Source: a virus
Lineage: Duplodnaviria > Caudoviricetes
Length of the DNA stretch: 64,000 bases
Reading direction: 5' to 3' (one strand)
Virus record (IMG/VR): IMGVR_UViG_3300032226_000829
The notes below the pieces were generated by a model, which was given only the letters and a program-made list of their open reading frames with translations, had not been told where the DNA came from and searched no databases. Of the stretch, positions 9,886 to 55,796 are shown in pieces. Both the position numbers and the translations under genes were made by a program. Within the stretch, counting starts at the first letter, position 1. Every line of letters begins with the position of its first letter.

Positions 9886-9893
9886 ATACTAGC

Positions 9894-13664: not shown

Positions 13665-13676
13665 AGAGTATATATT

Positions 13677-13706: not shown

Positions 13707-13728
13707 GAATTAACAAAAGGAAAAATTT

Positions 13729-14811: not shown

Positions 14812-15023
14812 TGCGAGAAGCTGATCAATTAATAGAAACTTGGCAATTTTTTAAAGAATATATCGATAAGAAACAAATCGATATAGTGGCTGAGAAGTAT
14901 GTGGAAATGTGCGCCGACTATGGCGCTGATGATGAGGTTTTCAAAGAATCCATGGGCAATGACCAAGACTTGGACAAGGCCATCATGTACTATCTGGACA
15001 TTGAGGAAGACGAGGACAACTAA
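14811..15023 (+). CDS. Small acidic hypothetical protein
   Basis: 70-aa ORF coupled by TAATG overlaps to uvsX and uvsY. Confidence 0.7.
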   Translation: MREADQLIETWQFFKEYIDKKQIDIVAEKYVEMCADYGADDEVFKESMGNDQDLDKAIMYYLDIEEDEDN

Positions 15024-39803: not shown

Positions 39804-39939
39804 TTTATAGTAGTTATTGCATTGCGTTTTGATTGATTTCAGTCATGATAATGTGGTATTTGCATATTGATTGTTCTTAGTTCATGTTTGTTATCTTGAC
39901 CCGTATAAAGACGTGTATATGGGAATTAAATGGTGTTTT

Positions 39940-40860
39940 TTAGGGGTATTGAATGGTGTGTGTCCACAGTTTGTCCACCACCGTTTTTACACACTGCTGC
40001 CATTCACTCACATCAGATTCAGCTTGTGCCTGCCACCAAATATCCTGATCCCACCATCCTGCTTGAATGGTTAGGTTTTGATTTTTTACTTGAGCCACCA
40101 CTCCGGCTGCTGTGTCACAATCACCGTTGATGCCAGCCAGCACTGCTCGTTCACACCACAATTCAATAGTTTCCTCTGGTAGTAAGAATGGTTGCCAAAG
40201 ATCCCATGAACGTTGATCTTTCTCTCTGATTTGAACCACCACACAACCAGCACCAGCAGCAGGCAACATTAATTCGTTTGGTAATATTTCGTGAGCTCCA
40301 CTCCATGTGGGATGATTCCAATTGTTCTGTGTGTCTAATAAATTCAAACGTTGCACAGCACACTCAGCCATAATGATGGCAGAATATTCTCCATCAATTA
40401 ATTTTTTTAATCTAGTACCGATGTTGCCTCGTAGACTGACCACTTCTACATCTGGTCTCAACAATCGAAACTGAGCAGCACGTCTGGCGCTGCTGGTGCC
40501 TACGCGAGTGTAGCTGGGAATTTCAGTGTAAGAATTATAAGCACTCAGCACACAATCTCTACGATCATCTCTTCGCCACACACAGCCCAACAGTGTGGTG
40601 CCTGGTTGCACTTGAGTGGGCACATCTTTAGCACTGTGTATTACACAATCCACTTCACCTGCCAGCAATGCTTGTTCTAACTCTCTACAAAAAGCACCTT
40701 TGCCGCCTACTTCACTCAAGGGTCTATCAGTTACTAGATCTCCAGTGCTGACAATTTGTTTGATTGTGGTGGGTATGGATAAACCTTTCAGTGCCCACTG
40801 TGTTTGCACCATGGCCAGGTCTGACTGACGACTGCCCACAGTGTACACAGAAGTTTTCAT
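39940..40860 (-). CDS. hemC: Porphobilinogen deaminase (hydroxymethylbilane synthase)
   Basis: GSRQSDLAMVQ, GGKGAF, HSAKDVP, GTSSARR, LRGNIGTRL, cofactor Cys in NGDCDT. Confidence 0.92.
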   Translation of the reverse strand: MKTSVYTVGSRQSDLAMVQTQWALKGLSIPTTIKQIVSTGDLVTDRPLSEVGGKGAFCRELEQALLAGEVDCVIHSAKDVPTQVQPGTTLLGCVWRRDDRRDCVLSAYNSYTEIPSYTRVGTSSARRAAQFRLLRPDVEVVSLRGNIGTRLKKLIDGEYSAIIMAECAVQRLNLLDTQNNWNHPTWSGAHEILPNELMLPAAGAGCVVVQIREKDQRSWDLWQPFLLPEETIELWCERAVLAGINGDCDTAAGVVAQVKNQNLTIQAGWWDQDIWWQAQAESDVSEWQQCVKTVVDKLWTHTIQYP

Positions 40861-40866
40861 GATGGT

Positions 40867-41121
40867 TTAACGTCTACCCGACAGACCTTTTTTCTTGTGT
40901 TTCTTATCCAGTCCTAATTTTCTTTTGCGACCAACGGGTAGATCCATCCAGTAGCTCATGGGTTCACCTCGCTTGGTGAGATAGGTCACTTGTGTATCTG
41001 ACACTTTGACTTTGGATTGAAATTGTTTCACTGCTCTTTTCCAGCTGAGTGCATCAATAGAATCTTTTTTGATTGTGCCTTGTTCAAAATAATCAAATTG
41101 GTATGTTTTCATTTTTGGCAT
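40867..41121 (-). CDS. Hypothetical basic protein
   Basis: 84-aa ORF directly upstream of hemC on the same strand. Confidence 0.6.
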   Translation of the reverse strand: MPKMKTYQFDYFEQGTIKKDSIDALSWKRAVKQFQSKVKVSDTQVTYLTKRGEPMSYWMDLPVGRKRKLGLDKKHKKKGLSGRR

Positions 41122-41197
41122 GATTGAATCCTTTGTTTTGAAATATTTATTGTGAAAAAAAAATTAACAACTTATTCTGAAATGATAATTAATGTAT

Positions 41198-41668
41198 ATG
41201 GCCATACTATACCAATTATGCTGTGGTAACCAACACCAATTTGAAGGATGGTTTCCCAGCATAGCACAATTTGACACACAAAAAGAAAAAGGACAATTGC
41301 AGTGCCCCATGTGTGGCACCAAACAAGTAGATCGTGACATCATGTCACCCAGAGTGGGCAAAAATAAAAAAATCAAAACCAAAAAGTCCACACGTCAAGA
41401 ACGCTTGGATGCATTAAAAGATCAAGTGCAGTCTCCTACAGAAATGATGATGGGCACTAGAGTGAAAGAAATGATGCGTACCATACGTGATCATGTCAAA
41501 CGTGAATATGAATTTGTGGGTGATCGCTTTGTGAAAGAAGTTAAAAAATACGAACATGGTGAACGTGATGATCGTTTTTATGGAACTCCTAGCGAGGAAG
41601 AAGCACGCAAATTGATAGAAGAAGGTGTGGATCTGTTTGTGGTGCCTGATGTTAAGGACGATGCCTAA
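41198..41668 (+). CDS. DUF1178-like zinc-ribbon protein
   Basis: YQLCCGNQHQFEGWF..., QCPMCG, YVGDRF-like FVGDRF, EEARKLIEEG. Confidence 0.8.
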   Translation: MAILYQLCCGNQHQFEGWFPSIAQFDTQKEKGQLQCPMCGTKQVDRDIMSPRVGKNKKIKTKKSTRQERLDALKDQVQSPTEMMMGTRVKEMMRTIRDHVKREYEFVGDRFVKEVKKYEHGERDDRFYGTPSEEEARKLIEEGVDLFVVPDVKDDA

Positions 41669-41727
41669 ACACATTAAGTGCAAATATAATAAATTTTTTA
41701 AGTGATCCATTCACGATAAATAATTGC

Positions 41728-41919
41728 ATGCACACACACGGATACAACGATAAAATTGGGCCCAACGCTGGCAATTTTCAAGAATATACCTACGAATTGG
41801 AATGGATGGAATGTGTGTGGAACAACACCTATCAGATCACAGACATGGTCACTGCATACTGGTATCCATGGATACGCAATGCTGTGCTGGAGTCAATCCC
41901 CCACACAGAAGTTAATTAA
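41728..41919 (+). CDS. Small hypothetical late protein
   Basis: 63 aa; TAAATA 5 nt upstream. Confidence 0.6.
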   Translation: MHTHGYNDKIGPNAGNFQEYTYELEWMECVWNNTYQITDMVTAYWYPWIRNAVLESIPHTEVN

Positions 41920-42064
41920 TACATGATTGAATGTGTTTGTTCTAAATGCTCTTGTGAACATCATTGTGAACAAGAATGTGCTGAATGTCAAATATGTGAA
42001 AAGTGTGACTGTGATCACTGTGAAAACAAAAAAGAGCATAAAGTAGATATCTATCTAACCTAAA

Positions 42065-42487
42065 ATGAAAATATCTGAATTCATATCTGAAGGTGCTGGT
42101 TTGTCTGGATTTTTCAAAGACGAAGAACTCAAAGCATGGAATTTTCCTCAGGGATATGCTTCTGATGCAGATGTGGAAGGTCCTCATCTGAGCAACAGCA
42201 CTGCTAGAGAAGTTTTGACAGCATTGGGAATGAATCCAGATTTTGAAAATTCAGAGCCTGTTAAAATAGAGGTATTCATTAATCTTGCCACACAATGGTT
42301 ACAAAAACACATTGGTAAACCCAGCTCAGCTAGAACAACCACAGTGAATAAAAAAGATTCAGGAGCCACAGTTTATGATATAGGTAAACCTCAAGGTCGT
42401 CTTAATGATTTAATATTACAATTGAGCCAACAAGCAAGAAAAATCAAACAAAAATATCCCACCATCACTCACGTGGCCTTTGTTTAA
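42065..42487 (+). CDS. Putative internal head protein with capsid-targeting-like N-terminus
   Basis: Starts MKISEFISE|GA. Confidence 0.55.
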   Translation: MKISEFISEGAGLSGFFKDEELKAWNFPQGYASDADVEGPHLSNSTAREVLTALGMNPDFENSEPVKIEVFINLATQWLQKHIGKPSSARTTTVNKKDSGATVYDIGKPQGRLNDLILQLSQQARKIKQKYPTITHVAFV

Positions 42488-42495
42488 TATTTTTA

Positions 42496-42666
42496 TTATC
42501 TATTTTTCAATTCTTTAATAACTTTTAATTGTTCTTCAGCAGTCATCTTGTGCCAGTTATTGATCTCGTCTGCTGTTCGTGAGCAGCCCATGCACAAACC
42601 ACTCTCCCAGTCAATGGAGCATATTTGAATGCAAGGGTTCGTCACCTGCTGGTGTTTCTTTTCCAT
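42496..42666 (-). CDS. DUF1289-like Cys-rich protein (56 aa; absent from ORF track)
   Basis: Translated by hand: NPCIQICSID...GLCMGCSRTADEINNWHKM; TAAATA 5 nt upstream. Confidence 0.8.
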   Translation of the reverse strand: MEKKHQQVTNPCIQICSIDWESGLCMGCSRTADEINNWHKMTAEEQLKVIKELKNR

Positions 42667-42682
42667 GCTGTTATTTAATGTT

Positions 42683-43744
42683 TTACTTGTCAGCAGTTAT
42701 GTGTGGCAACACAAACTGTATGCCCAGCCAACGAAACTTCTTGGCACTGTCGGCGAAACTGCAGTTAATCCTGGCAGTTCTTACTTTATAAGGATTCAAA
42801 GGTTCTATGACCACTGTGTTTTCTCCCGTGAATCTCAGTGGCACAGTGGGCCAACTATCTCCGTCATTGGTGGTACACACTATGTGCTTGAGATTCTTCA
42901 ACCCTGGCACAAACTCTATCTCCAGCTGTGGTGGGTTATTGAACTCTGACACTTTCTTGTCTGCAGGTAGGAATCGTACATAGGGCATGGGCAGTGTGTT
43001 CAACACCATTTCAAATCTGTCAGCCTTGCCCCAATTCTCGTTGATGGGGAATCGTGGCAGTTCAAACTTGTCTTTAACACTGTCCATCACTCCTGAATGC
43101 TGTCCAAATGCCAATCTGAATCCCATGCCTCTGACCATCTCTTTGAACTCCAGGCCATACTCTCCAAATGGATATGAGAAATACTCGGGTATGGATCCCA
43201 GCTCTCTCTGAAAGTCTTTGTTAGCCTGCCATAGATCATTCTGTATCTCATCTCGGCTTTTGTTCATTAGATAATCATGTGAGTATGAATGATGTCCTAT
43301 CACTCCCAATCCTGACTCGTGTATCTCTCGCACCTGTGCCCAGGTCATGTAATTTCGGTTCTTGGAATTGATTTCTCTGGTGTTCAAGAACAGCACAAAA
43401 GGTATGCCTTCTTTTTTCAGTATGGGCCAAGCATGTTTGTAGAAACTGGCCCAGGCATCGTCGATGGTCAGCAGCACTCTTTTGTTGTGTAGTTCTCTGT
43501 GCCCATGCATGTAGTCGTCCAACTCTTCTATGGAGATAAAGTCCAGATTCATCTTGCGTATCATCCGGATCTGTTTTTCAAACTCCTTGACCTTGACATT
43601 GGTTGTGGGGTATTTGTTCTCGTCAAACTTGTGATACATCAATCCAATCACGCCAGGTTCTTGGTGAGGTTCTAAAGAAAAAGATGTAACAGTGATTGAA
43701 ATTAATAATAAAGAAGAAAAAATTAATTTAATAATTTTGGCCAT
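42683..43744 (-). CDS. Secreted polysaccharide deacetylase (NodB/CE4)
   Basis: Signal-like N-terminus; LMYHKF, LTIDDA, HHSYSH, YFSYPFGE, LPRFPI. Confidence 0.88.
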   Translation of the reverse strand: MAKIIKLIFSSLLLISITVTSFSLEPHQEPGVIGLMYHKFDENKYPTTNVKVKEFEKQIRMIRKMNLDFISIEELDDYMHGHRELHNKRVLLTIDDAWASFYKHAWPILKKEGIPFVLFLNTREINSKNRNYMTWAQVREIHESGLGVIGHHSYSHDYLMNKSRDEIQNDLWQANKDFQRELGSIPEYFSYPFGEYGLEFKEMVRGMGFRLAFGQHSGVMDSVKDKFELPRFPINENWGKADRFEMVLNTLPMPYVRFLPADKKVSEFNNPPQLEIEFVPGLKNLKHIVCTTNDGDSWPTVPLRFTGENTVVIEPLNPYKVRTARINCSFADSAKKFRWLGIQFVLPHITADK

Positions 43745-44502
43745 TTTCTTAGATCAGGTTTAGTCTTTTCTATCTTGGTTTTTTCTTTGGGCAACTTAGG
43801 CATGAAGTTTATGCCTGTGAGTTTTTCCACTGCTTCTACTGTGGTGGCATATTTGGCAAGATCTTCCACAGGTAGAGCTGTGTTGGGAAATATGAATGCT
43901 ATGGCCTTGCCTTCTTTTCTATCGATAATCACTTTCCACAATTGATCAGGCACTCCCACCTTGCCTTCGCCTATGGTTTTAAATTCTTTGTTGTACACTG
44001 TGCCGCTGATCACGTAGATATCCATGCCATGATCTACTACCCAATCTCTCACAAATGTTTCCAACTGTTTCCATATGCCTCTGTTGTGATTGGGCACTTG
44101 TGGCACCATGTTGGATAGAAAGAAACTTTCACTCATTGCCTGTTCACTCTGTGTGTTGTTGCCTGCTGGAGCAAGATGTCCTCTGTCGTAAGGATGACCT
44201 GCATAATCTTTCAGTGTGGCATTGTGTTGTGCGGGTATGGCTGGATCTGATCTGAAGTCATCTTTGCGTTTGAATGTGCCTGTGGTACCTTCCATGGTCA
44301 CATGCTCCACCACATACTCTGCCGTCTTGGTATCATATCTGTAATGAACAGCATAATTGATTTTGCAAAGATATTGAGTGTTCTGTTTGATTTTAGAAAC
44401 TGGTGCACCCAAAAGCACGTGTTGTGGACACTGGTCATCTATAGGATTTGCCCAAACTCCTGTGATTGATAAAATTAAAATTAATAATATTTTATAGTAC
44501 AT
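43723..44502 (-). CDS. Secreted DNA/RNA non-specific endonuclease (NucA family)
   Basis: Signal peptide; YDRGHLAPA, SFFLSNMVPQ, NRGIWKQLE. Confidence 0.92.
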   Translation of the reverse strand: MYYKILLILILSITGVWANPIDDQCPQHVLLGAPVSKIKQNTQYLCKINYAVHYRYDTKTAEYVVEHVTMEGTTGTFKRKDDFRSDPAIPAQHNATLKDYAGHPYDRGHLAPAGNNTQSEQAMSESFFLSNMVPQVPNHNRGIWKQLETFVRDWVVDHGMDIYVISGTVYNKEFKTIGEGKVGVPDQLWKVIIDRKEGKAIAFIFPNTALPVEDLAKYATTVEAVEKLTGINFMPKLPKEKTKIEKTKPDLRKWPKLLN

Positions 44503-44590
44503 ATTGAATGTACTTATATTATACTATATTATGTGTGTTTGGAAAAGGCTTCACAGTGCCAAAAAAGCACTGTGAGCCCAGGAATCAAAT

Positions 44591-44902
44591 TTATTTTTTC
44601 TTTTTTTTGGCAGGTTTTTCGTCTTCGTCTTCAAAATCTACGTCTATTTCTTCGTCAAGATCTTCTATATCTTCTTCAGACTCGTCTTCACTGTCTTCAC
44701 TGTCTTCGCTGTCCTCATCAGTATCATCCTCATCTTCAAAATAAGAATCATCAGAATCAGTATCTTCTTCGTCTGAATCTATTTCGTAAATGTAGTTTTC
44801 AATGATTGATTTAATTTCAGTTTGTTTTTCTTGTATTTTTTCTATAGAGTCGTCAATTTGTTCAAACAGTTTGTCAATTTTCTTTTGATTAAGTTTAGCC
44901 AT
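44591..44902 (-). CDS. Highly acidic small protein with Lys tail
   Basis: Coiled N-terminus, long D/E/S tract, KPAKKKKK end. Confidence 0.7.
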   Translation of the reverse strand: MAKLNQKKIDKLFEQIDDSIEKIQEKQTEIKSIIENYIYEIDSDEEDTDSDDSYFEDEDDTDEDSEDSEDSEDESEEDIEDLDEEIDVDFEDEDEKPAKKKKK

Positions 44903-45022
44903 AGTGATCCTCCCATTGTGTGGTGATGTTATTTAATTTATAATTGAAAAATTTTAAATGACCATTTAAAACAAATTATATACCTAGATAACTGCGTACA
45001 TTATTGCTGTAAATATTAAGTC

Positions 45023-45493
45023 ATGACAATATCAAACATACTTAAACCTATCAGTGTGGCTCTAGCTATATTCTTAGCTGCAGACTACTCCCTTGCTGGA
45101 CCATTGCCTGACTACTCGTTCAAAAGCCCTGCTTTTAATGGCAATGGTTACAGCACTCACGAGTTGACCAAGTATAACCTGGAACAAACTCGTGCCAAGG
45201 AGATTCAACAGGCCTTGGAATCCAAAGCTGCGGCTGCCAAAGCAGAGGCTAAGAACACGCCCATCAATCAGTTCATGGTCAATTTAGAATCAAGAATTTA
45301 CGCACAGATCAGTCAAAATTTAGCCACTGCTATGTTTGCAGATGGTGCAGCCACCACTGGCAGCATGACTTTTCAAGGCAACACCATATACTGGAACAAG
45401 AACGGCACCACGAGCATCACGTTGATGGTGACAGATACTCTGGGCAACAACACCACCATAGAAGTGCCATTGGGACAATTTACATTTAATTAA
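45023..45493 (+). CDS. csgF: Curli assembly protein CsgF-like
   Basis: Signal peptide; YSFKSPAFNG, FMVNLESRIYAQIS, TTIEVP; adjacent to csgG; TAAATA 7 nt upstream. Confidence 0.75.
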   Translation: MTISNILKPISVALAIFLAADYSLAGPLPDYSFKSPAFNGNGYSTHELTKYNLEQTRAKEIQQALESKAAAAKAEAKNTPINQFMVNLESRIYAQISQNLATAMFADGAATTGSMTFQGNTIYWNKNGTTSITLMVTDTLGNNTTIEVPLGQFTFN

Positions 45494-45494
45494 T

Positions 45495-46352
45495 ATGATA
45501 AAAATTGCTTTGACATTGGGATTATTATTGCTGAGTAATTGTGCAGTGATGCAGAAAGGTGGCATGGAAAGCAAACCTGAAATCACTGAGATGAAAATGC
45601 AAAAAGAATTTGACACAGTGCCTACACCAGCACAGAAGAAGATCACAGTGGCAGTGTACAGTTTTCAAGACAAAACAGGACAGCGTAGGAACACTCCCAA
45701 CGTGGCCAGTTTCTCCACAGCAGTCACACAGGGTGCAGAACCATTCCTGATCAAAGCTCTGCAAGATGTGGGCAAAGGTCAATGGTTTGATGTGGTAGAA
45801 CGAGTGAACGTGGACAACCTGATCAAAGAGAGAACCATCATCAAACAGATGAGAGACATGTATGAGGGCGGCAATGCCAAGAGTGTGCCACCATTGCAAT
45901 TTGCAGGCATCATAGTGGAAGGTGGCATCATTGGCTACGACAGTGGCATGGAGTCAGGTGGAGCTGCTTACAAATGGTTGGGCATAGGACCACAATCACA
46001 ATATTCCAAAGACGTAGTGACCATCAGTTTAAGAGCAGTATCAGTGAGCAGCGGCAAGGTGTTGGCTACTATCACAGTGAGCAAGACAATTTACAGCACA
46101 GCAGACAGCATTGCCATATTGAAAGCATTCAGAGGCGGCACTGCATTTTTTGAAGCTGAGACAGGACTTACTATCAACGAACCCACCACTCTGGCAGTAA
46201 AGGCCACAGTCGAGGCAGCAGTGGTGGAATTAATAAATGAAGGCGAGCGCAAAGGTATTTGGAGTTTTAAAGATCCTAAACCTGAGAACCTAGACGAGTG
46301 GTATGAAAATAATAACCAACAATTAAACAAAAAACAAGAGGAACAAAAATGA
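45495..46352 (+). CDS. csgG: Curli secretion channel lipoprotein CsgG
   Basis: Lipobox LSNC; VAVYSFQDKTGQ, FSTAVTQG, WFDVVER, IVEGGIIGYD. Confidence 0.93.
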   Translation: MIKIALTLGLLLLSNCAVMQKGGMESKPEITEMKMQKEFDTVPTPAQKKITVAVYSFQDKTGQRRNTPNVASFSTAVTQGAEPFLIKALQDVGKGQWFDVVERVNVDNLIKERTIIKQMRDMYEGGNAKSVPPLQFAGIIVEGGIIGYDSGMESGGAAYKWLGIGPQSQYSKDVVTISLRAVSVSSGKVLATITVSKTIYSTADSIAILKAFRGGTAFFEAETGLTINEPTTLAVKATVEAAVVELINEGERKGIWSFKDPKPENLDEWYENNNQQLNKKQEEQK

Positions 46353-47296
46353 AAAATATGAAAATAATAATTCCTTGCTTGGTTACCATACTATATTCAA
46401 CATCAGCTTTGTCTGATGATAATTTGATTTATATTGACCAAGTGGGTTCGTCATCTGACGTCACAGTAACACAAACAGGCAGTGGCAACACAGTGGGTGG
46501 TACCAGTGGTGCGGCTGCAACAGGTAATAGAGCGTCTTTGTCAGGATCAGATCAAACCATCAGTGTGACACAAACTGGCGATGGCAACACATTAAAATTA
46601 AAAACACAAGATGGATCCACAGGAACCAGCATAACGAACTATTCAGCGACCGGTGACAACAACACGTCTATCGTGGACACTGTGAGCTCGGGTGCAGGTA
46701 ACACCATCAATCAAACCATATATGGTGACACCAACACTACCAATGTCAATGTTAGAGGCAACAGTGGCGCCAACTCTGTGACCACAAATATTGGAACATC
46801 AGGTGCCAACAGCAACAGCAACACTGTGAATCAAAGTACCAGCGGTACTCTGAACAGTCAAACTGTGAGCATCACAGGTGGCAACAGCAACACCGTAACT
46901 GTGCTGCAAGGCAAAGGATCTTCTCTGACCAATGATATCACAGTGCCCACCACTTCAGGCACGTTGTTGGGATTAGATTCCGCCACATTTGGATCTGGCT
47001 CAACCAGTGACAAGGCCACTGCTTCAGTGACCATACAGGGTGGCAGCAACAATGTGAGAATTGGACAGGTGGGTGGAGATGCCACAGGCAACTCGGCCAC
47101 TGTGGACATCTTAGGATCTTCCAACGGCATCAGCATTGCACAACAGGGACTGGGACACAGCTCATCTAGTTTGACTGTGACTGGTGGCAGCAACACTTTG
47201 AACGTGGGACAGAATGCTACGTCAGGCAACACCAATACTACCACTATGAGTGTGACTGGCAGCAACAACTTGGTCAACATACAACAAAATCACTAG
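46349..47296 (+). CDS. Curlin-repeat protein 1
   Basis: Signal peptide; DNLIYIDQVG and tandem N-x5-Q-x-G-x2-N repeats, very S/T/G/N-rich. Confidence 0.75.
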   Translation: MKNMKIIIPCLVTILYSTSALSDDNLIYIDQVGSSSDVTVTQTGSGNTVGGTSGAAATGNRASLSGSDQTISVTQTGDGNTLKLKTQDGSTGTSITNYSATGDNNTSIVDTVSSGAGNTINQTIYGDTNTTNVNVRGNSGANSVTTNIGTSGANSNSNTVNQSTSGTLNSQTVSITGGNSNTVTVLQGKGSSLTNDITVPTTSGTLLGLDSATFGSGSTSDKATASVTIQGGSNNVRIGQVGGDATGNSATVDILGSSNGISIAQQGLGHSSSSLTVTGGSNTLNVGQNATSGNTNTTTMSVTGSNNLVNIQQNH

Positions 47297-47305
47297 GAAT
47301 GTCCA

Positions 47306-48127
47306 ATGAGACTTCTAAATTGGCTCACAGCAGGATTGATCGTTTCCTCGGCAACCTGCTGGGCAGCTGACAACGAGGCCTACATTGATCAACTGGGAGA
47401 ATATGCCACCATATATGTGGAACAGGATGGTTCAGCCAACAGCCTAGGCGGAGTGGATGGACCCATATGGTACAGCAATCCTGCCATGATGTATGGTGAT
47501 GGTCAAAATGTGGACATCAGACAGGTGGGATCTGGCAACTACTTAAAATTTTCTATTTTCACTAAATTGGAAGACTACGCATATACCAGAACCGGAGTCA
47601 CATGCACAGGAGTGTGTGGTGAAGCGGATGCCAACGAGTTCGTGGTGTATACCACTGGCTACGGCAACCTGGGCACTGTGAACGTCAATGCCGATGGTGA
47701 GGTGGAAACATCTGGCATAGCACTGTACCTATCGGAGACTGGAGATTTCAATGAGAGCAACATATCCATCACTGGGTTGAAGCACACAGTGGTGCTGCTG
47801 ACCATGGGCGACGTCAACACATTCAACAGCGTGACTACAGGCGAAGAGAACTTCTCCTACACCAGCGTCACAGGATATCTCAACACTATTTCTATCACTC
47901 AAAGTGGCACTAAAGGTTTAGTCATATTGGACATAGCAGGCAATCAGAACACTGCCACTGTCACACAATCAGGTGGAGGAGCTCTAGGGCATTGGACCAA
48001 TCTTTCTGTCAGTGGCAATCTTAACACTCACACCATAGCACAGTCAGGCACAGCGGCGGACAGCGTGGTGGATATCAAGACCACGGGCGGCAGCAACAAC
48101 TTTAACATCAACGTGAATTCAAGATAA
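47306..48127 (+). CDS. Curlin-repeat protein 2
   Basis: Signal peptide; DNEAYIDQLG, QVGSGN, QSG repeats. Confidence 0.75.
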   Translation: MRLLNWLTAGLIVSSATCWAADNEAYIDQLGEYATIYVEQDGSANSLGGVDGPIWYSNPAMMYGDGQNVDIRQVGSGNYLKFSIFTKLEDYAYTRTGVTCTGVCGEADANEFVVYTTGYGNLGTVNVNADGEVETSGIALYLSETGDFNESNISITGLKHTVVLLTMGDVNTFNSVTTGEENFSYTSVTGYLNTISITQSGTKGLVILDIAGNQNTATVTQSGGGALGHWTNLSVSGNLNTHTIAQSGTAADSVVDIKTTGGSNNFNINVNSR

Positions 48128-49248
48128 TGAAAAAGATCCTATTATTGATGCTGTTATACACCACTGCTGTGTATCCAGCAGCCATAGGAACCATCACAGA
48201 ACAAACAGCAGCACCAGGTTCTATTGTGAGAAATAAGAATACCATCACAGGCACCAAAGGCACAGGCATAGAGATGCAGGATGCTGTGAACACTGCCAAG
48301 GGCAAAGTGGGCATAACATTTGAAGATGCTACCCGAGTGGAAGTGAATGAAAATTCCAAACTCGTGATAGATGATTTCGTTTATGACGCTAAAAAAGGTT
48401 CAGGCAAATTGGCCATGAAGTTTGCTGAAGGCACAGTGAGATATGCCTCAGGTGCCATTGCCAGCAAGAATCCCAATGCAGTTAATATCAACACACCATC
48501 TGCCACCATTGCAGTGCGAGGCACAGACTTCACTGCCACTGTGGATGAAGTGGGTGCCAGCACCATTATTCTATTGCCCAGTTGTCCCAAAGGTTGGGCA
48601 GACATAGACAGAGATTGCAAGACCGGAGTGATTGATGTGATGAATAATGCAGGCACAGTCACTTTAAACAAACCCTTTCAAGGCACCAGAGTGGAGAATA
48701 GAAACACAGCACCATTAAAACCTACCATACTGAGTTTGAATTTAGACACCATTAATAACCTGTTGATTGTGAGCCCACCCAAAGAGATCAAACAGGCACA
48801 GGAACAATATGACAACGAAGCAAAAAACACAGCCAGCATGCTGAATGAAAATCTATTGGACAGCAAGGATTTTTTAAAAGATGAATTGAAAAGCAGGAAT
48901 GAGTTTGGAGATAATCCTCTGCTGGAAGATCTACTGGGACAAAATTTCTTGGCCAACATCTTTGACATATTGGAGCAACAGTTAAAGAATGAAAGAAAAG
49001 CAGTGTTAAAAAGTGCATTGGTCCCAGAAGGTGACAGCCTGCTGCCGGACTACAATCCTGACACAGGAGTAAAGGCCACAGTGGGTGCATCGGAAGTGAC
49101 GCTGTGCCGTAATGATGGCAGCAACAATCAGTGCATCACCACACCGCGCGGTCAGAGCAGCACCATCATACAGGGTCAAGGACCAGTGAGCATTCAGAAC
49201 AGGGTCAACTCAGGTGGTGGCACAACCATAACAGTGATACAACGATGA
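48127..49248 (+). CDS. FecR-domain periplasmic protein
   Basis: Signal peptide; ITFEDATRVEVNENSKLVID, GTVRYASG, TPSATIAVRGTDF. Confidence 0.85.
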   Translation: MKKILLLMLLYTTAVYPAAIGTITEQTAAPGSIVRNKNTITGTKGTGIEMQDAVNTAKGKVGITFEDATRVEVNENSKLVIDDFVYDAKKGSGKLAMKFAEGTVRYASGAIASKNPNAVNINTPSATIAVRGTDFTATVDEVGASTIILLPSCPKGWADIDRDCKTGVIDVMNNAGTVTLNKPFQGTRVENRNTAPLKPTILSLNLDTINNLLIVSPPKEIKQAQEQYDNEAKNTASMLNENLLDSKDFLKDELKSRNEFGDNPLLEDLLGQNFLANIFDILEQQLKNERKAVLKSALVPEGDSLLPDYNPDTGVKATVGASEVTLCRNDGSNNQCITTPRGQSSTIIQGQGPVSIQNRVNSGGGTTITVIQR

Positions 49249-50555
49249 GAAAAATATTATTATTAATGTTATTATTATGCTCAGATGCTTGGGCAACACT
49301 GTCATATAAAACATATAGAGGCACAGGTGCTTATCCTAGTATGCCATATTACGGCACAGGTCAACTATATTACCCAACTGTATTAAGCACTGGAACAGTG
49401 GCTAATATTAATTACAATTGGGGCGGTGGTTATGTTTTAGATTCAGGTAGACATGAACAAGTCATTGTAAATTTTTATGGTTATATCACCATACCAGGAT
49501 CAGGATCTCAAACAATATATTTTTATAGTGCTAGTGATGATGGGTTTTATCTGAGGGTAAACAATTCCACAGTTATTAATAGTTGGGTTGAACAAGGAGT
49601 ATCATATTACAATGGTTCAGGAAGTATTGTACTACAAGGTGGACAATCATATTATATCGATGCTTGGATGTATGAGAATGGTGGAGGTGCGGCTGCTATG
49701 TTATATTGGAATACAGGTTCAGGTATAACCGTAGTTCCAAGTTCAGCATTAACTACAACTATGCCAGCAGGTTCAGGAGGTGGAGGCAGTTACATCAGCA
49801 ATATCACAAACACACAACAGAACAACATCACTGCCAATCTGGGCAGAACCACAGCACTGGCCAACGGCAATGAGATCTACATAGATCAAGTGGGAAACAA
49901 TAACACAACAACAATCACTCAAAAAGGTAATAATAATAAAATCACAGGTACCACACAGCAAACTGCCACCATATCAGGCAACAGCAACTCTACCACTATC
50001 AGACAGAACAGTGGCACAGGTAAAAATTTAATAGATCTAAATGTGACCGGCACGGGCAGCAACACCCTCAACCTCAACCAGGGCTATCTCACAGATGGCA
50101 CACTGAGCGGCAATCAACTGGGCAACAACTATCAGAAAGTGGATGTGCAGGGCAACAACAACTCATTGACCACTCAGCAGAATAGAGATGTGGGCACAGT
50201 GGGCAATTACATGGAACACACTGTGATTGGCAATTACAACAGCATCACCAGCACACAGAGCGGAGACAACAAATTATTATTCAATTCTATCACGGGCAAC
50301 TACAACACTGTGAGCACCACACAGTCAGGCACAGGCGCTCAACACTATATTGATTTGACACTGAATGGTGCAGGCAACACTGCCACTGTGAATCAGAGTG
50401 GCAACACACAGAACAAGGCCACCATAGTGATCAACAATTTGGGTGGATCAGCGGGTGTGAATCTCACACAGACCGGCGGGCAAACCTACAACATCACTAC
50501 CAACTGCGTGACACTGGGCGGTTGCGGCACTACCACGGTGAACCAAGCACAATAA
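49245..50555 (+). CDS. PA14 lectin-like domain fused to curlin repeats
   Basis: Start 49245 (ATGA overlap); INYNWGGG, ASDDG, YENGGGA (PA14); GSGGGGS linker; NEIYIDQVGNNN curlin repeats. Confidence 0.8.
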   Translation: MRKILLLMLLLCSDAWATLSYKTYRGTGAYPSMPYYGTGQLYYPTVLSTGTVANINYNWGGGYVLDSGRHEQVIVNFYGYITIPGSGSQTIYFYSASDDGFYLRVNNSTVINSWVEQGVSYYNGSGSIVLQGGQSYYIDAWMYENGGGAAAMLYWNTGSGITVVPSSALTTTMPAGSGGGGSYISNITNTQQNNITANLGRTTALANGNEIYIDQVGNNNTTTITQKGNNNKITGTTQQTATISGNSNSTTIRQNSGTGKNLIDLNVTGTGSNTLNLNQGYLTDGTLSGNQLGNNYQKVDVQGNNNSLTTQQNRDVGTVGNYMEHTVIGNYNSITSTQSGDNKLLFNSITGNYNTVSTTQSGTGAQHYIDLTLNGAGNTATVNQSGNTQNKATIVINNLGGSAGVNLTQTGGQTYNITTNCVTLGGCGTTTVNQAQ

Positions 50556-50566
50556 ATACTCATATT

Positions 50567-52603
50567 ATGAAATGGGTCAGTCCTTGGACAGCAATCATCA
50601 CTTTGATATTAATCCTCACTGTTAGGATGGCAGACCCCGCATTTGTGGAGAGTGTGCGACTGAGATACTTTGACACTCTGATCACTGGCAAAACTGCCAC
50701 ACAAAACAACATATACACTGTTAACATTGACGAGAAGAGTTTGGAGCAGTATGGGCAATGGCCATTCCCCCGAGATGTGTATGGCCGGATTATCCAAGAT
50801 TTGTATGACAGAGGAGCAGGGTTAGTGGTGTTCAACGTGCTGATGCCAGAACCAGATCGCAGTGGCAAAGATGCGACATTGGCAGAAACCATGCGAAAAT
50901 ATCCTGTGGTGTTGAGCAATGTGCCAGCACAACAGACCAAGAATGAACCCCGAGTGCCAGGCTCAGCAGTGCTGGGACCAGAACATCTTAACACCATTGT
51001 GAAATATTCAGGCATGATTGCCAATATACCGTCATTGGAAAATGCTGCTGTGGGAGTGGGAACCACCAACACACTGCCAGAGATAGATGGCGTGAACCGA
51101 CGACTGCCTCTGATAGTCACTGTGGATGGAAAATTATATCCCAACCTTGCAGTGGAAACTCTGAGAGTGGCCACAAACAATTCTACATTTCAAGTCAAGT
51201 TAAATGTGAATGGTGTGGAGAAGATGAGACTGCCTGGAGACATAGGCATCATTGACACAGACTCCTTGGGCAGAGTATGGATAGATTGGAGTCAACGGAA
51301 TCACTCAGTGTCTTTAAATGATCTACCCGCAGACTTCAAAGGATCCATAGTGATAGTGGGCACATCAGCAGCAGGCATAGCCAATCCAGTGGCCACAGCC
51401 ATAGGACCAGTTTGGCCTCAGGATCTACAAGCAGCCGTGATAGGCACCATGATCAACAAAGTGAATATCAAGAGACCTGATTGGGCAGAGGGTGCAGAAA
51501 CAATCAGTTTAATACTATTGTCCTTGACTTTATTATTTTTAAGCAGATGGGTTTATGTGGGCATGGCAATGGGAGTCATTATGATTGTTGCCGTGGTTCC
51601 TTTGAGCAATCTTTTTTACACACACAATCTTTGGCTGTTGGATGGCACTCTACTGGTGGCAGGATTGACATTGGTGATGCTGCATGCCTATGGTATCAAA
51701 TTTGTCAGTGAGTATCTACAGAAACAGAGAATCAAGAAACAATTTGGTGGATATGCATCTCCCATGGTGGTTGAAATGTTGCAGAAGAATCCAGACATAA
51801 TCAAACAAGGTATTAAGAAAGAAGTATCCATCTGTTTTTCAGATCTGCGTGGATTCACTCCACTGGGAGAATCATTTGGCAATGATGTGAAAGGATTGAC
51901 TGAAGTGATGAATGGTTATATGGATGCCATCACACAACCTGTGTTGGATGCCAACGGCATGATCATCAAGTACATTGGTGATGCCAGCATGCACATTCAC
52001 AATGCACCCATGGATGATCCAGAACATCCTAAAACAGCAGTGCAGACTGCACTTCGCATGTTGAAGGCAGTGGAACGTTTCAATGAGACATTAACAGCCA
52101 AAGGTAGACCCATTGTGGGCATGGGTGCTGGTATCAACACTGGTCTGGGTTATATCGGTGAAATGGGCAGCACACAGCGACATTCATATGATGTGTTGGG
52201 TGATGCTGTGAGCACCACAGCAAGATTGGAAAGTCAATGCAAGAACTATGGAGTGCTATTGATAGTGGGTCCTGAAACCCATCGCAGAACTCAGAATGAT
52301 TTCTTCTATCTCAAACTGGATGATTTGGCAGTGAAAGGCAAAACTGTGGGATTGGAGATCCACACAGTGTTGGATTTGAATGCTGCGGAACATGCAGATG
52401 ACAAACAAACACATGATGCCATGCATGCGGATTATAGGAATCAAAAATTTGATGCAGCCATTCAAAAATGCAAACAGTTGCAAGACCGATTTGATGGTCA
52501 GATGAAAAAATACTATGACATGTGGCAAGAGCGTTGTGAATACATGAAAACACAAACGTTGCCCAAGGATTGGACGGGTGTGTTCACAGCCACCAGCAAG
52601 TGA
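50567..52603 (+). CDS. CHASE2-domain class III adenylate cyclase
   Basis: TM + CHASE2 (VNIDEKSL..YGQWPFPR, VFNVLMPEPDR), 3 TMs, FSDLRGFT, KYIGDA, GINTG, YDVLGDAVSTTARLE, VKGK. Confidence 0.92.
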   Translation: MKWVSPWTAIITLILILTVRMADPAFVESVRLRYFDTLITGKTATQNNIYTVNIDEKSLEQYGQWPFPRDVYGRIIQDLYDRGAGLVVFNVLMPEPDRSGKDATLAETMRKYPVVLSNVPAQQTKNEPRVPGSAVLGPEHLNTIVKYSGMIANIPSLENAAVGVGTTNTLPEIDGVNRRLPLIVTVDGKLYPNLAVETLRVATNNSTFQVKLNVNGVEKMRLPGDIGIIDTDSLGRVWIDWSQRNHSVSLNDLPADFKGSIVIVGTSAAGIANPVATAIGPVWPQDLQAAVIGTMINKVNIKRPDWAEGAETISLILLSLTLLFLSRWVYVGMAMGVIMIVAVVPLSNLFYTHNLWLLDGTLLVAGLTLVMLHAYGIKFVSEYLQKQRIKKQFGGYASPMVVEMLQKNPDIIKQGIKKEVSICFSDLRGFTPLGESFGNDVKGLTEVMNGYMDAITQPVLDANGMIIKYIGDASMHIHNAPMDDPEHPKTAVQTALRMLKAVERFNETLTAKGRPIVGMGAGINTGLGYIGEMGSTQRHSYDVLGDAVSTTARLESQCKNYGVLLIVGPETHRRTQNDFFYLKLDDLAVKGKTVGLEIHTVLDLNAAEHADDKQTHDAMHADYRNQKFDAAIQKCKQLQDRFDGQMKKYYDMWQERCEYMKTQTLPKDWTGVFTATSK

Positions 52604-53007
52604 TGTTGATATCTCCCAAATATAAATTATTTCCACAACGATTGAGAGTTTATCCATTTAATCAAATACAAGATCAGCATCCTGTGGATTCACTGTTTGA
52701 GCCACAATTGAAAGAAGCTGTGTTGCAGGAAGGATTGCTGTGTCCCATGGTATTGAATCACAAAAAACATCTGATCAGTGGCAGTCACAGATACAAGATA
52801 TTGCGAGAATTGAATTACAGCAGCAGTGAATTCTATCTGGCTCTGAGCCGTGATGAGGAACGATTTTTCACACAGTTGAACGTGACTGTGTGGCAGCTGC
52901 ACCAGCAGCGCCAAGTGCCCACAGATGCACAATTTTTATTTGAAGGTGCAATGAAAGCATTCACTGTGAAATGTCAACACCTATTCACAGTGCCCAAGCA
53001 CAGATAA
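52603..53007 (+). CDS. ParB/Srx-like N-terminal domain protein
   Basis: EGLLCPMVL...LISGSHRY; coupled to cyclase stop. Confidence 0.55.
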   Translation: MLISPKYKLFPQRLRVYPFNQIQDQHPVDSLFEPQLKEAVLQEGLLCPMVLNHKKHLISGSHRYKILRELNYSSSEFYLALSRDEERFFTQLNVTVWQLHQQRQVPTDAQFLFEGAMKAFTVKCQHLFTVPKHR

Positions 53008-53020
53008 ATACTCATATATT

Positions 53021-53299
53021 ATGGACTTCTTAAAATTAACCATGGACGTGGGTTTTCCCATTGCAGCAGCACTGGCAGGTGGTTTCTTTGTGTTCCTCAC
53101 ACTGAAATTCATACTGGCGTCTGTGACCTCAGATGTGAAGAAGCTGAGCGGCATCATTGAAGCCTTGGACAATCGTGTTAAAACCATGAATGCAGATGTG
53201 ATACGCATTGACACACTGATCAGTGCCACACTTAAAATACGCCCAGATGTGGAACGCATTGGTAGAGCCAACGGCAAAGAAGATTGTAGGAAAGATTAA
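53021..53299 (+). CDS. Single-TM coiled-coil protein, holin-like A
   Basis: VGFPIAAALAGGFFVF TM, then heptads LDNRVKTMNADVIRID. Confidence 0.65.
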   Translation: MDFLKLTMDVGFPIAAALAGGFFVFLTLKFILASVTSDVKKLSGIIEALDNRVKTMNADVIRIDTLISATLKIRPDVERIGRANGKEDCRKD

Positions 53300-53569
53300 A
53301 TGACCAAAGAACTCATACAGATGATCAATCAATATGGATTTCCCATCATTGCTGCATTTGGCATGGGCTACTTTATCTACTACACATGGTCATGGGTGAC
53401 TAGAGAAGTCAAACCCGTGCTGAGTGACACCAGCAAAACCCTCATAGCATTGGTGGATCGCATACGCATGCTGGACAATGATCTGATCCGTTTGAACACC
53501 AAATTGAATGTGATCCTGGAGCATCAGGAAGAACTGCAGAAAAACCCCCCAAAACCACCACAGCAGTAA
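53300..53569 (+). CDS. Single-TM coiled-coil protein, holin-like B (paralog of A)
   Basis: YGFPIIAAFGMGYFIY TM, then LVDRIRMLDNDLIRLN. Confidence 0.65.
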   Translation: MTKELIQMINQYGFPIIAAFGMGYFIYYTWSWVTREVKPVLSDTSKTLIALVDRIRMLDNDLIRLNTKLNVILEHQEELQKNPPKPPQQ

Positions 53570-53626
53570 GCCCCACACTGCTAATAGTAGCATAGAACTT
53601 CACAGTCACACAGTTCTAAATACTTG

Positions 53627-53863
53627 ATGAAAATCCTATTGGTGATCCTGATCTGTTTTCAAGGCGAATGCAAATACATAGTGACTCAAGAACCCACATT
53701 CTCACAGAGAGCAGAATGCGAACAGTTCAGTCGTCAGGTGCTGAGAACAGTGGATCTCAAAATACAGCACAGCAATAATCAGGTGATGTGTTTGAATGAG
53801 TTACAGTTGGCACAGCAGCAATTGCTGTGGTACTATGAAGGCATACCCCAAGCGGATCAATAA
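53627..53863 (+). CDS. Small exported Cys-containing protein
   Basis: Hydrophobic N-terminus, 4 Cys; TAAATA 4 nt upstream. Confidence 0.6.
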   Translation: MKILLVILICFQGECKYIVTQEPTFSQRAECEQFSRQVLRTVDLKIQHSNNQVMCLNELQLAQQQLLWYYEGIPQADQ

Positions 53864-53955
53864 TTCCAAAAAATACAATCAAAAAAAATTTAGTAGGGTA
53901 ACTCTAAGATTCTGTGGGGAAGTTTTTGGCTCCCAATGGGTGTGAATGTGTGTGC

Positions 53956-54174
53956 TTAGATCACTGCAGGCTTGCGCTGAATGTGTCCCACCACTGTGCC
54001 CTGATGTTCACCCTGCTTGATGGTATAACCTGAGGTACCGTTACCGTTGATCTCCACTTCTTTACGAGCTCTCACTATGGCGCGATCTGATTCGGCCTGT
54101 TTGAGTTCCTCTGTGTGCTTCTCCAGCATTCTCTTATTGATGTCTATGGTCATATGAGTGTCCTTGTGCGTCAT
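53956..54174 (-). CDS. Hypothetical protein
   Basis: 72 aa; KEVEINGNGTSGYTIKQG. Confidence 0.6.
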   Translation of the reverse strand: MTHKDTHMTIDINKRMLEKHTEELKQAESDRAIVRARKEVEINGNGTSGYTIKQGEHQGTVVGHIQRKPAVI

Positions 54175-54209
54175 GCATTTATTACATGACTGCTATGTTT
54201 ATTTAGCAG

Positions 54210-54362
54210 TTATTTGGTCAAATACAACAGCACTGGTATGCACACCATCAGTGTGCTGATGCTCCACACCACTGCCACTTGCAGTAGGGCAATCCAAGTG
54301 TTGGAGTGCAATGCCACATGTAAAAAATAGGGTCTATGGGATGGTTTCTTCTTCTTGATCAT
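54210..54362 (-). CDS. Small membrane protein (50 aa)
   Basis: Translated by hand; basic N-terminus + hydrophobic helix; ATGA overlap with next gene. Confidence 0.45.
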   Translation of the reverse strand: MIKKKKPSHRPYFLHVALHSNTWIALLQVAVVWSISTLMVCIPVLLYLTK

Positions 54363-54502
54363 CGGCGGCCCTGTCCTTTGTATGCTTTGAATTGACGTTT
54401 TTTGTGCTTGTTCATGCTGCTGCGCTTGATGTTGCGACGATCACTCTGCGAAGTCTTTTTGGGCTTGGGAGTGGGTCTGCTGTCTTTGCTGTATATTGCC
54501 AT
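54359..54502 (-). CDS. Very basic microprotein ending YKGQGRR (47 aa)
   Basis: MAIYSK...SSMNKHKKRQFKAYKGQGRR; promoter TTGACA-N17-TATATT upstream. Confidence 0.6.
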   Translation of the reverse strand: MAIYSKDSRPTPKPKKTSQSDRRNIKRSSMNKHKKRQFKAYKGQGRR

Positions 54503-54609
54503 AATAGCATACAATATACTGTGCTTTGCCATCCTTGTCAATGGAGTATTTGAGGATGTTTTGCCAAAAATGGTTGTGCTCCAAAAAATCAAATTACAAA
54601 AAATTTAAT

Positions 54610-54707
54610 AGAAGTACTTAACTTCTTGGGGTGGTGATTCCGCCACCTATAAGCACTGTAAAAAGCAGCTTTAGTTTTAAAGTTGTATAGCCGAAGCCCC
54701 TGATGAA
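54610..54707. ncRNA. Candidate structured RNA element
   Basis: Three adjacent hairpins in an intergenic stretch (AGAAGT/ACTTCT, GGTGG/CCACC, GCAGCTTTA/TAAAGTTGT). Confidence 0.3.
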
Positions 54708-54721
54708 ATTTTTTTATTATT

Positions 54722-55312
54722 CTACTTGGCCTGACGCTTCATGAATGTGTGAGCACCAATCACTTGAGTCTGCTGTTTGACATCTGCCCACTGAGGGTAC
54801 ACCAGATTGTGTGCATAGTAGTAGGTGGCACCACCTGTGTTGTCCTTCAGCTCTCCCTGCATCACCTGCCAAGCAATCCTCACTGAATCTCTCCATGCTG
54901 TACGGTTGGCTTCAATGTGTGTGCCGTCTCGCAACTGCACCCATATGATGTCCTTGAGGCCATCACAGTACCATGAGAACTGGCACTGGTTACGACGGGG
55001 TATGTACACACGATCTTGAGGAGCCACGCCCTCTACTCCTCGGGTCTTCCAGCTTTCGAAATGTCTGCCATCCTGTATCACTGCACAAGGTGTCTTGGGG
55101 AACCTGGGGTCTCGGATCCTGTTCTGCACCACATGAGCCACTGCCTGTTTGCCTGATTCACCCTCGGCTCTGCTTTCAAAATATATGTTCTGAGCCATGC
55201 AGAACAACTGAGCTGGATCCACAGGCTTGCGGCCCGTGTCTTGAGCCATGCTGATGTTGAGTGCAATCATTAGGGTGTAAGCTATTTGAGTCACAGAGTC
55301 CAACATGTTCAT
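54722..55312 (-). CDS. Cell wall hydrolase (SleB/Hydrolase_2)
   Basis: CMAQNIYFESRAE, AVAHVVQNR, CQFSWYCDG, TGGATYYYA, IGAHTF. Confidence 0.9.
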   Translation of the reverse strand: MNMLDSVTQIAYTLMIALNISMAQDTGRKPVDPAQLFCMAQNIYFESRAEGESGKQAVAHVVQNRIRDPRFPKTPCAVIQDGRHFESWKTRGVEGVAPQDRVYIPRRNQCQFSWYCDGLKDIIWVQLRDGTHIEANRTAWRDSVRIAWQVMQGELKDNTGGATYYYAHNLVYPQWADVKQQTQVIGAHTFMKRQAK

Positions 55313-55335
55313 ATCCAGCTCCTTGTTTGGTTATA

Positions 55336-55725
55336 TTATCTAATAGAAGTTATATGAGACAAAGCACAATTTGAATTGGCTGCATAAGCTGTGAACATAC
55401 CTGAAGTATATCCACCAAATCCATTCTTTGCTCTGTAAGTCACAAATAATTGATGTTCTCCAGAATTGTTGATAGGACTTATTTTTGTTTGTATGTGTTC
55501 AAATGATTTAGGATCTCTCAATCGAGATTTGATTTCTCTATTCATATCGGCATTGGCGCCATCAACGTGGGACAAGCAATGAAATCCTGCCATTTGTTCT
55601 GCTTTTTTTTTAGCTTCATATTTGGCACTGCAGTCTTTGCAAATTAAGTTGGTATATATTACAATTCCAATAAAAAGAATGGTTACACTTACAAGTGAAA
55701 ATACTAGTGATTTTTTAAAACTCAT
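55336..55725 (-). CDS. Membrane-anchored hypothetical protein
   Basis: N-terminal TM; LRDPKSFEH, YRAKNGFGG. Confidence 0.7.
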   Translation of the reverse strand: MSFKKSLVFSLVSVTILFIGIVIYTNLICKDCSAKYEAKKKAEQMAGFHCLSHVDGANADMNREIKSRLRDPKSFEHIQTKISPINNSGEHQLFVTYRAKNGFGGYTSGMFTAYAANSNCALSHITSIR

Positions 55726-55756
55726 TGTGTGCTCCTTTGTTGTTTGTTTATAGTAT

Positions 55757-55796
55757 ATTATAGCATATTTTGGTACCAAAAGTCAATACCAAAATT
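55757..55796 (-). promoter_or_regulatory. Early promoter cassette P1
   Basis: TTGACT-N18-TATAAT containing the palindrome TTTTGGTACCAAAA, plus TACCAAAAT. Confidence 0.8.

Follow-up and report, generated by a model that had tools for sequence, protein, structure and literature searches.

A viral curli secretion module with a FecR-domain protein and a CHASE2 receptor cyclase in a lake-water jumbo myophage

What might a phage do with a curli secretion channel, candidate fibre subunits, a FecR-domain protein and a CHASE2 receptor cyclase, all encoded in one block? The question is raised by IMG/VR record IMGVR_UViG_3300032226_000829, of which we analyzed one stretch of 64,000 nucleotides (nt), called the window here and the reference for all coordinates. 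In it, seven plus-strand open reading frames (ORFs) at 45023-52603 abut or overlap, with gaps between neighbors of +1, -4, +9, -1, -4 and +11 nt (Table 1). The initial annotation had read these ORFs as tightly packed, co-directional genes for a CsgF-like protein, CsgG, a pair of proteins with curlin repeats, one with a FecR domain, a fusion of PA14 to curlin, and a class III cyclase bearing CHASE2. The Pfam matches of all seven exceed the curated cut-offs, confirming each identification. It had also placed a signal peptide or transmembrane segment (TM) on every one of the proteins, and a hydropathy scan, which served in place of a signal-peptide predictor and is the sole basis of all such calls in this work, agreed, finding hydrophobic N-termini on six proteins and TMs on the cyclase.

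The block is almost certainly the known viral type VIII (curli) secretion module of SAR11 and OM43 phages. Taken as a whole, it is best explained, in our moderately confident view, as a viral curli module that combines fibre export with a FecR/CHASE2 sensor. The curlin subunits would be exported via CsgG and CsgF and polymerized into surface fibres on the infected cell, and the adhesin decorating these fibres would be a curlin with a variable head. The FecR protein and the CHASE2 cyclase would form a two-part envelope sensor, inherited as a bacterial pair, in which the FecR protein would bind or modulate the periplasmic CHASE2 domain and the cyclase would convert the signal to cyclic AMP (cAMP). 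Candidate inputs to such a sensor are secretion load, the state of the fibres or of cell contact, and an external ligand.

Identity and distribution of the module

The initial annotation had taken the whole gene chain to be undescribed. This was wrong, since Wittmers et al. described in 2022, by bioinformatics, a chain of CsgF, CsgG, CsgA/B, FecR, a second CsgA/B and an adenylate cyclase in SAR11 podo- and myophages, and pointed out that bacterial curli operons contain neither FecR nor the cyclase nor a 'histidine kinase' (PMC9599517). In that study the viral curli proteins and the viral FecR were found at all 65 GOV2.0 stations, with transcripts in marine metatranscriptomes; aggregation, superinfection defence and import were offered as hypotheses for viral curli, and an alphaproteobacterial origin was proposed for the phage genes. 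As the annotation stated, csgF/csgG-like genes had been noted in SAR11 myophages: Zaragoza-Solas et al. (2020) reported csgF and csgG with unnamed neighbors in pelagimyophages, and also freshwater pelagimyophages without the operon (PMC7029224). Buchholz et al. (2022) discussed a pore role in phage Melnitz (PMC9004378). FecR and the cyclase are mentioned in neither of these last two papers. The GenBank records of Melnitz annotate csgF, csgG, curlin, FecR, curlin and adenylate cyclase, in the same order as in the window, and PHROGs holds full-length families for both the FecR protein and the cyclase. The module is already published, and the present copy adds a member that extends its range to a freshwater jumbo-phage lineage.

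Synteny among the 80 best viral loci from IMG/VR, the sample behind all IMG/VR locus counts given here, bore out the expectation that the module is conserved as a unit. Both csgF and csgG were present in all 73 loci with room upstream, and a CHASE2 cyclase was present in 50 of the 52 loci with at least 7 kb downstream, being absent from two and inverted in five of the 50. The gene order of the module was the same in the 80 loci and in Melnitz, and the co-directional block is conserved across hundreds of viral contigs. The FecR protein has at least 566 relatives on IMG/VR contigs, and its homologues in metagenomes number more than 5,700, which places the cassette among the most widespread multi-gene accessory modules of aquatic phages. 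It equips infected cells with a secretion system of the outer membrane that is missing from the known hosts, SAR11 and OM43. Among cultured phages, only Melnitz and HTVC008M carry the FecR protein, at 36-42% identity.

The window shares with the pelagiphage and Melnitz type VIII systems (HTVC023P-type podophages, pelagimyophages such as HTVC008M, and the Methylophilales phage Melnitz) the gene chain and the PHROGs of the FecR protein and the cyclase, and neither these systems nor the window module has CsgE or CsgD. The differences lie in the carrier, whose terminase is nearest to those of PA5oct-like jumbo phages and which comes from lake rather than marine water, and in the genes themselves: the window has the first curlin duplicated, a PA14 head on the second curlin, a cyclase of the Lys/Asp/Ser type described below, and a pair of small TM proteins after the cyclase, not before csgF.

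Table 1. Features of the window, with the genes of the module first
Feature	Position	Strand	Remarks
CsgF-like protein, 156 aa	45023-45493	+	PF10614 3.6e-15, 56.7 bits vs cut-off 25.8, model 10-132/132
CsgG outer-membrane lipoprotein channel, 285 aa	45495-46352	+	PF03783 5.9e-46
Curlin 1, 315 aa, signal peptide	46349-47296	+	PF07012 25.9 bits vs cut-off 20.7
Curlin 2, 273 aa, signal peptide	47306-48127	+	PF07012 27.5 bits vs cut-off 20.7
FecR-domain protein, 373 aa	48127-49248	+	PF04773 1.8e-11; FecR domain residues 54-146
PA14-headed curlin, 436 aa, signal peptide	49245-50555	+	PF07691 8e-9; PF07012 24.6 bits; real ATG 49245
CHASE2 receptor class III nucleotide cyclase, 678 aa	50567-52603	+	PF05226 2.8e-40; PF00211 3.1e-16
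Two abutting paralogous single-TM coiled-coil proteins, 92 + 89 aa	53021-53299, 53300-53569	+	phrog_18771
SleB-type cell-wall hydrolase	54722-55312	-	PF07486, endolysin PHROGs; 1.2 kb past TM pair
TAAATA box	45010-45015	+	7 nt before csgF ATG
TAAATA box	50553-50558	+	8 nt before cyclase ATG
Tail sheath	515-3727
Large terminase	8284-9885

The export channel and its candidate substrates

Residues 3-261 of the phage CsgG matched the E. coli CsgG structures at 6.3e-43, the FSTAV segment aligned with the constriction loop, and Cys16 in LLLSNC aligned with the lipobox Cys of E. coli CsgG. The CsgF-like protein has a hydrophobic, signal-peptide-like N-terminus and is predicted to cap the CsgG channel on the outside and to serve as its nucleation adaptor; a single-sequence search gave no direct match to solved CsgF structures.

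Curlins 1 and 2 are paralogues: most relatives carry one such gene, and the single-copy relatives match both. Curlin 1 consists of 64% G/S/T/N/Q with a periodicity of about 25 residues. A family profile of curlin 2, built on 30 homologues, matched two solved curli structures, 8c50 from Pontibacter (1.8e-23) and 8enq, the CsgA of E. coli (6e-6). The AlphaFold2 (AF2) model of curlin 2, with a pLDDT of 83, was an all-beta solenoid of strand-turn-strand units. In an exhaustive VIA search of 48,161 chains its top match was 8c50_A at a Z of 21.8, with a high root-mean-square deviation of 8.5 Å over 212 residues; unrelated beta-helices reached a Z of at most 17.0. Foldseek returned no significant match for this model in the PDB or among the Swiss-Prot models.

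These results bear on whether the curlin-like proteins are instead virion fibres or beta-helical tail proteins, a possibility that the initial annotation had itself raised as a test of its reading. The beta-solenoid models do also align with phage tailspikes, at Z values of 12-15. However, the profile homology is to curli subunits and not to tail proteins, in structure a curli subunit ranks first, well ahead of the tailspikes, and all three curlins have signal-peptide-like leaders of the Sec type and lie in an operon with an outer-membrane exporter. The outcome favors curli-type subunits, and we regard a virion role as extremely improbable. The three proteins are genuine CsgA-family members, and their export as fibres through CsgG and CsgF is probable.

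The third curlin, encoded after FecR, differs in its N-terminus. Its C-terminal curlin domain of 236 residues is kept in 69 viral ORFs and the PA14 part in 16, and the closest relatives, whose FecR proteins are 88-92% identical to that of the window, have unrelated N-terminal heads on this curlin. Longer versions of the N-terminus have no Pfam domain. The PA14 head is one of several interchangeable N-termini, and a changeable head on a conserved curlin domain fits a fibre-anchored adhesin whose head is exchanged.

Set against the CsgBAC/CsgDEFG curli of E. coli and Salmonella, the phage module has in common the CsgG lipoprotein channel, CsgF and CsgA-family solenoid subunits with Sec leaders. 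It differs in that it has no CsgE, CsgC/H or CsgD, adds the FecR protein and the CHASE2 cyclase, includes one subunit with a large variable N-terminal head, and is encoded by a lytic-type phage.

The small TM proteins downstream of the cyclase raise a different explanation for the channel. This pair, which has a weak N-terminal holin match (7e-5) and its own TAAATA box 10 nt upstream, accompanies the module in at least 50 of the 80 loci. Its place varies: it may precede csgF, follow the cyclase in either orientation, or separate FecR from an inverted cyclase. In the pelagiphage module one or more small 'histidine kinase' genes stand before csgF (PMC9599517). In the window no plus-strand gene precedes csgF, and the pair that occupies this place in many relatives, a candidate for those genes, sits after the cyclase. 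Matches to the pair in the Atlas were to phage clusters only, and the module may include the two proteins as further members. Their holin-like character and frequent company, together with the SleB-type hydrolase just downstream on the minus strand, would suit the proposal made for Melnitz from synteny and modelling (PMC9004378), in which CsgG and CsgF are a repurposed pore, a gated secretin or pinholin-like, that times lysis. That proposal assumed that CsgA/B genes are lacking, whereas three CsgA-family genes are present here and curlins are present in Melnitz. Moreover, CsgG is an outer-membrane protein and cannot depolarize the inner membrane, and the endolysin-like gene is tied to the module in only one of the 80 loci, on which ground we rejected it as a module member. 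We therefore consider a lysis pore quite unlikely, and fibre export remains the reading that we prefer for CsgG and CsgF.

The FecR-domain protein and the CHASE2 cyclase

The FecR-domain protein has a signal-peptide-like leader, the FecR domain, two Cys pairs and a beta-rich C-terminal domain, and it matched phrog_37870 over its full length at 1e-114. C153 and C164 are invariant and C327 and C336 nearly so, and the two pairs fit an oxidizing compartment. We rejected a role as an anti-sigma factor, as the protein has neither the cytoplasmic N-terminus nor the TM of such factors, and no ECF sigma factor or TonB-dependent transducer was found among the neighboring ORFs scanned (39261-55779). The predicted periplasmic FecR domain is all that the protein has in common with FecIRA signalling. 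Profile searches with the protein found no solved relative by sequence. The beta-rich C-terminus was also considered as a curlin repeat, and so as a fibre component, an idea that found no support in a profile-profile comparison (probability 3%).

In the window the FecR and CHASE2 genes are separated by one gene. Bacterial loci fetched by similarity to the FecR protein had a CHASE2 gene within 10 kb in 8 of 48 cases, with no detectable csgG (L013, L015, L019, L020, L023, L024 and L057 are such loci); by our estimate this far exceeds the roughly 1% expected by chance. In L023, a 579-kb alphaproteobacterial contig, the genes encode a CHASE2 cyclase, DUF3307 and a FecR protein of 259 residues. L013, a proteobacterial contig of 803 kb, encodes at 8602-14931 a Slam outer-membrane translocator, a FecR protein of 909 residues and a CHASE2 adenylate cyclase. 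A weak TbpB-type barrel match at the C-terminus of this FecR protein scored 22.3 bits, short of the cut-off of 26, and at this locus the FecR/CHASE2 pair may be linked to another outer-membrane exporter.

Comparable pairs are known from the literature. In Sinorhizobium meliloti, cyaD1 adjoins the FecR-domain gene smc02177 (PMC5498481), and an external protein is perceived by the CHASE2 cyclases only with the help of NsrA, a protein of the outer membrane (PMC7529298, PMC13001267). CyaD1, CyaD2 and CyaK are, like the phage protein, inner-membrane class III cyclases with CHASE2; as in the phage, a periplasmic FecR-domain gene is close by, in this case beside cyaD1, and their origin is alphaproteobacterial, as proposed for the phage genes (PMC9599517). 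These cyclases answer uL2, a protein of the ribosome, in its free form by way of the outer-membrane partner; perception depends on NsrA and not on CsgG/CsgF, curlins are lacking, and the output runs via the Crp-like regulator Clr, a counterpart of which was not found in five related phage records. In Burkholderia a LysM-FecR gene lies beside a CHASE2 kinase gene, and a related FecR-kinase pair occurs in P. aeruginosa PAO1 (PMC5192318). This Burkholderia 'BiofilmReg' locus (response regulator, LysM-FecR, CHASE2 histidine kinase, DUF4136) likewise sets a secreted FecR protein beside a CHASE2 sensor in a biofilm-linked context (PMC5192318), and differs in its kinase/response-regulator output, the LysM on FecR and the lack of a secretion channel. 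FecR and CHASE2 are by all appearances a bacterial sensor gene pair that is also found without CsgG, and because the bacterial pairs lack csgG, the phage module looks like a sensor pair joined to a secretion system. A pre-existing bacterial pair points to CyaD1/SMc02177 of S. meliloti as an experimental model.

The cyclase matched phrog_35576 over its full length at 6e-192. From the N-terminus it is laid out as TM1, a periplasmic CHASE2 domain, a TM cluster at about residues 307-380, the catalytic domain and a conserved C-terminal tail, the real ATG being that at 50567. The metal-binding D426 and D472, the adenine-specifying K468 and the transition-state R553 are invariant across the 31 homologues compared, phage and bacterial, and D542, at the adenine-specifying Asp/Thr position, is present. 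At position 549 the canonical transition-state Asn is replaced by Ser, as it is in 15 of the 31 aligned homologues. Ser always occurs with Asp542 (15/31), and Asn occurs with Thr or Ser at position 542 (16/31, including all the bacterial ones), so that there are two catalytic types: Lys/Thr(Ser)/Asn, as in the bacterial relatives, and Lys/Asp/Ser, in the window, Melnitz and 13 others. The phage protein, a predicted nucleotide cyclase, probably uses ATP, an assignment of the base that we infer from the Lys/Asp pair. In the close relatives L059 and L060 the CHASE2 domains are 85-90% identical and the catalytic domains 39-42%, which suggests that the output domain was swapped by recombination, with a breakpoint where the sensor half of the cyclase meets the output half.

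We also modelled the two partners together (CHASE2 residues 28-306, FecR residues 20-372). The complex received an ipSAE of 0.39 (0.39, 0.28 and 0.39 in separate runs), compared with 0.01 for the best control, a score in a weak range that without a good prior is more often wrong than right. Contacts agreed in at least 96% between runs, and the pLDDT of the partners was at least 62. Of 80 solved complexes, 58 attained the mark used for such predictions, as did 2 of 110 mismatched pairs, and the range of scores up to 0.60 held 7 of the 80 solved complexes and both mismatches. The model lends weak support to binding between FecR and CHASE2 and is no demonstration of it.

The caution attached to this score is one of several points that count against the account of the module preferred here. 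The AF2 model of the FecR protein, from an alignment of 10 rows, had a pLDDT of 43 and was unusable. Across 53 loci, the identities of FecR and of CHASE2 to the window proteins showed no positive correlation in a check in the style of a mirror tree (Spearman -0.41), which, together with the inversion or absence of the cyclase in some loci, suggests that the two genes recombine independently. The Ser at position 549 leaves the activity and the product of the cyclase unproven. A cyclic nucleotide-binding domain (PF00027) was not found in five module-bearing phage records, leaving the signal without a known reader. On the side of secretion, CsgE was not found among the seven ORFs, and its family PF10627 was absent from the five module-bearing phage records, three of which are at least 90% complete, so that gating and substrate delivery are unexplained. 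Finally, no clumping was observed in Melnitz-infected cells (PMC9004378). The coupling of the FecR protein to the cyclase, as first annotated, is thus upheld in part: the bacterial pairs without curli genes and the weak complex score speak for it, and the absence of co-divergence across phages and the change from Asn to Ser speak against it. We consider the chances that the FecR protein acts on CHASE2 to be evenly balanced.

The missing CsgE figures in two other explanations. In one, the FecR protein would be a secretion accessory in place of CsgE, delivering or gating curlins at the periplasmic face of CsgG, and the cyclase would be an independent sensor that shares the locus. The position of the FecR gene would suit this, as it lies between curlin genes and overlaps its neighbors by 1 and 4 nt, and so would its linkage to csgF and csgG, which at 73 of 73 loci is tighter than that to the sometimes inverted or missing, not co-diverging cyclase. 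However, FecR-domain genes pair with CHASE2 in bacteria with no csgG nearby (PMC5498481, PMC5192318), and the complex score for FecR and CHASE2 stands far above that of the best control; we judge a CsgE substitute unlikely. In the other, which has been suggested in PMC7029224 and PMC9599517, a CsgG channel freed of its CsgE gate would let cofactors, iron compounds or other solutes into the infected cell, and FecR would be a regulator connected with iron. This leaves three conserved curlins, CsgF and the variable head of one curlin unexplained, and an iron role finds no support in a FecR protein without anti-sigma N-terminus or TM, in a block without ECF sigma factor or TonB-dependent transducer. 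Import is in our view highly improbable.

If FecR and CHASE2 do form an envelope sensor, what would it control? The initial annotation had proposed that the state of a surface amyloid would be passed on via FecR to the cyclase, with cAMP made late in infection, and had named the timing of lysis, superinfection sensing, and aggregation or particle attachment of infected cells as possible outputs. We would give little credence to any particular output of the cyclase. In one version, the pair would sense the outside, through the state of fibres or contacts or through debris from the lysis of neighbors, and lysis would be delayed or triggered by cAMP acting on the TM pair or on factors of the host. 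We consider this very unlikely. If true, sensing of the outside coupled to cAMP would amount to a decision circuit resembling lysis inhibition, assembled from a secretion system and a second messenger.

The carrier phage, upstream boxes and neighboring genes

The phage origin of the window is evident from genes for a tail sheath, a tail tube, a large terminase, a gp32-like single-stranded DNA-binding protein, UvsX and helicases. The carrier is an uncultured lake-water jumbo myophage. The large terminase had its best match, at 55%, in PA5oct-like Pseudomonas jumbo phages, and the phage is of a freshwater jumbo type whose nearest cultured relatives, with the terminase as the sole criterion, are PA5oct-like phages. 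The only cultured phages with DNA similarity to the window were the four Melnitz isolates. DNA of the window is present in lake-water metagenomes from at least 12 studies, and the module block, with phage accessory genes and in the same gene order, occurs on metagenomic contigs of 295 kb and 334 kb, the longer of which carries near-identical FecR genes. In four lake metatranscriptome libraries we found contigs over both curlins, FecR, the PA14-curlin, the cyclase and the TM pair, which is consistent with, and no proof of, transcription of the block.

Two bacterial bins also contained the complete module with a phage-type TM pair upstream of csgF: a 103-kb contig of a Luteolibacter metagenome-assembled genome (L008, 7121-15557) and a 36-kb contig of a Rhodobacteraceae bin (L009, 6890-16284). 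Mis-binned phage contigs, prophages and cellular copies are all candidates for what these are.

Both TAAATA boxes that the initial annotation had placed just before csgF and the cyclase were confirmed at the distances given in Table 1. Of 86 crude gene calls, 18 had the motif in the 60 nt upstream, compared with 7.8 +/- 2.7 in shuffles, an enrichment of about twofold, and it also lies 4-8 nt before the ATG of structural genes at 4476, 7032, 7615 and 9894. Because it is enriched and placed before structural genes as well, the shared element is real. The full T4 late octamer TATAAATA was at chance level in the window, the enrichment being limited to the TAAATA core. TAAATA is a putative late promoter; so near to the ATG, a box may serve near-leaderless mRNAs as their promoter or else play a part in translation initiation. 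No terminator-like sites were found on the plus strand inside the block, and sigma-70-like sites were near chance.

Divergent from csgF, on the minus strand, lie a polysaccharide deacetylase gene (42683-43744) and a gene for a DNA/RNA non-specific endonuclease (43723-44502), both products having signal-peptide-like N-termini. Elsewhere, a secreted nuclease was near the module in 7 of the 80 IMG/VR loci and in L008, and a deacetylase in none of the 80; on these counts both were rejected as module members. Just upstream of this envelope block are the porphobilinogen deaminase gene hemC (39940-40860, minus strand) and a gene for a DUF1178 protein (41192-41668, plus strand). The 64-kb window contains no tRNA genes. 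Its GC content is about 0.30-0.39 over the first 40 kb and 0.41-0.47 beyond 40 kb, and from 55.3 to 64 kb there is a dense run of small minus-strand ORFs in which GC and AT skew are strongly negative.

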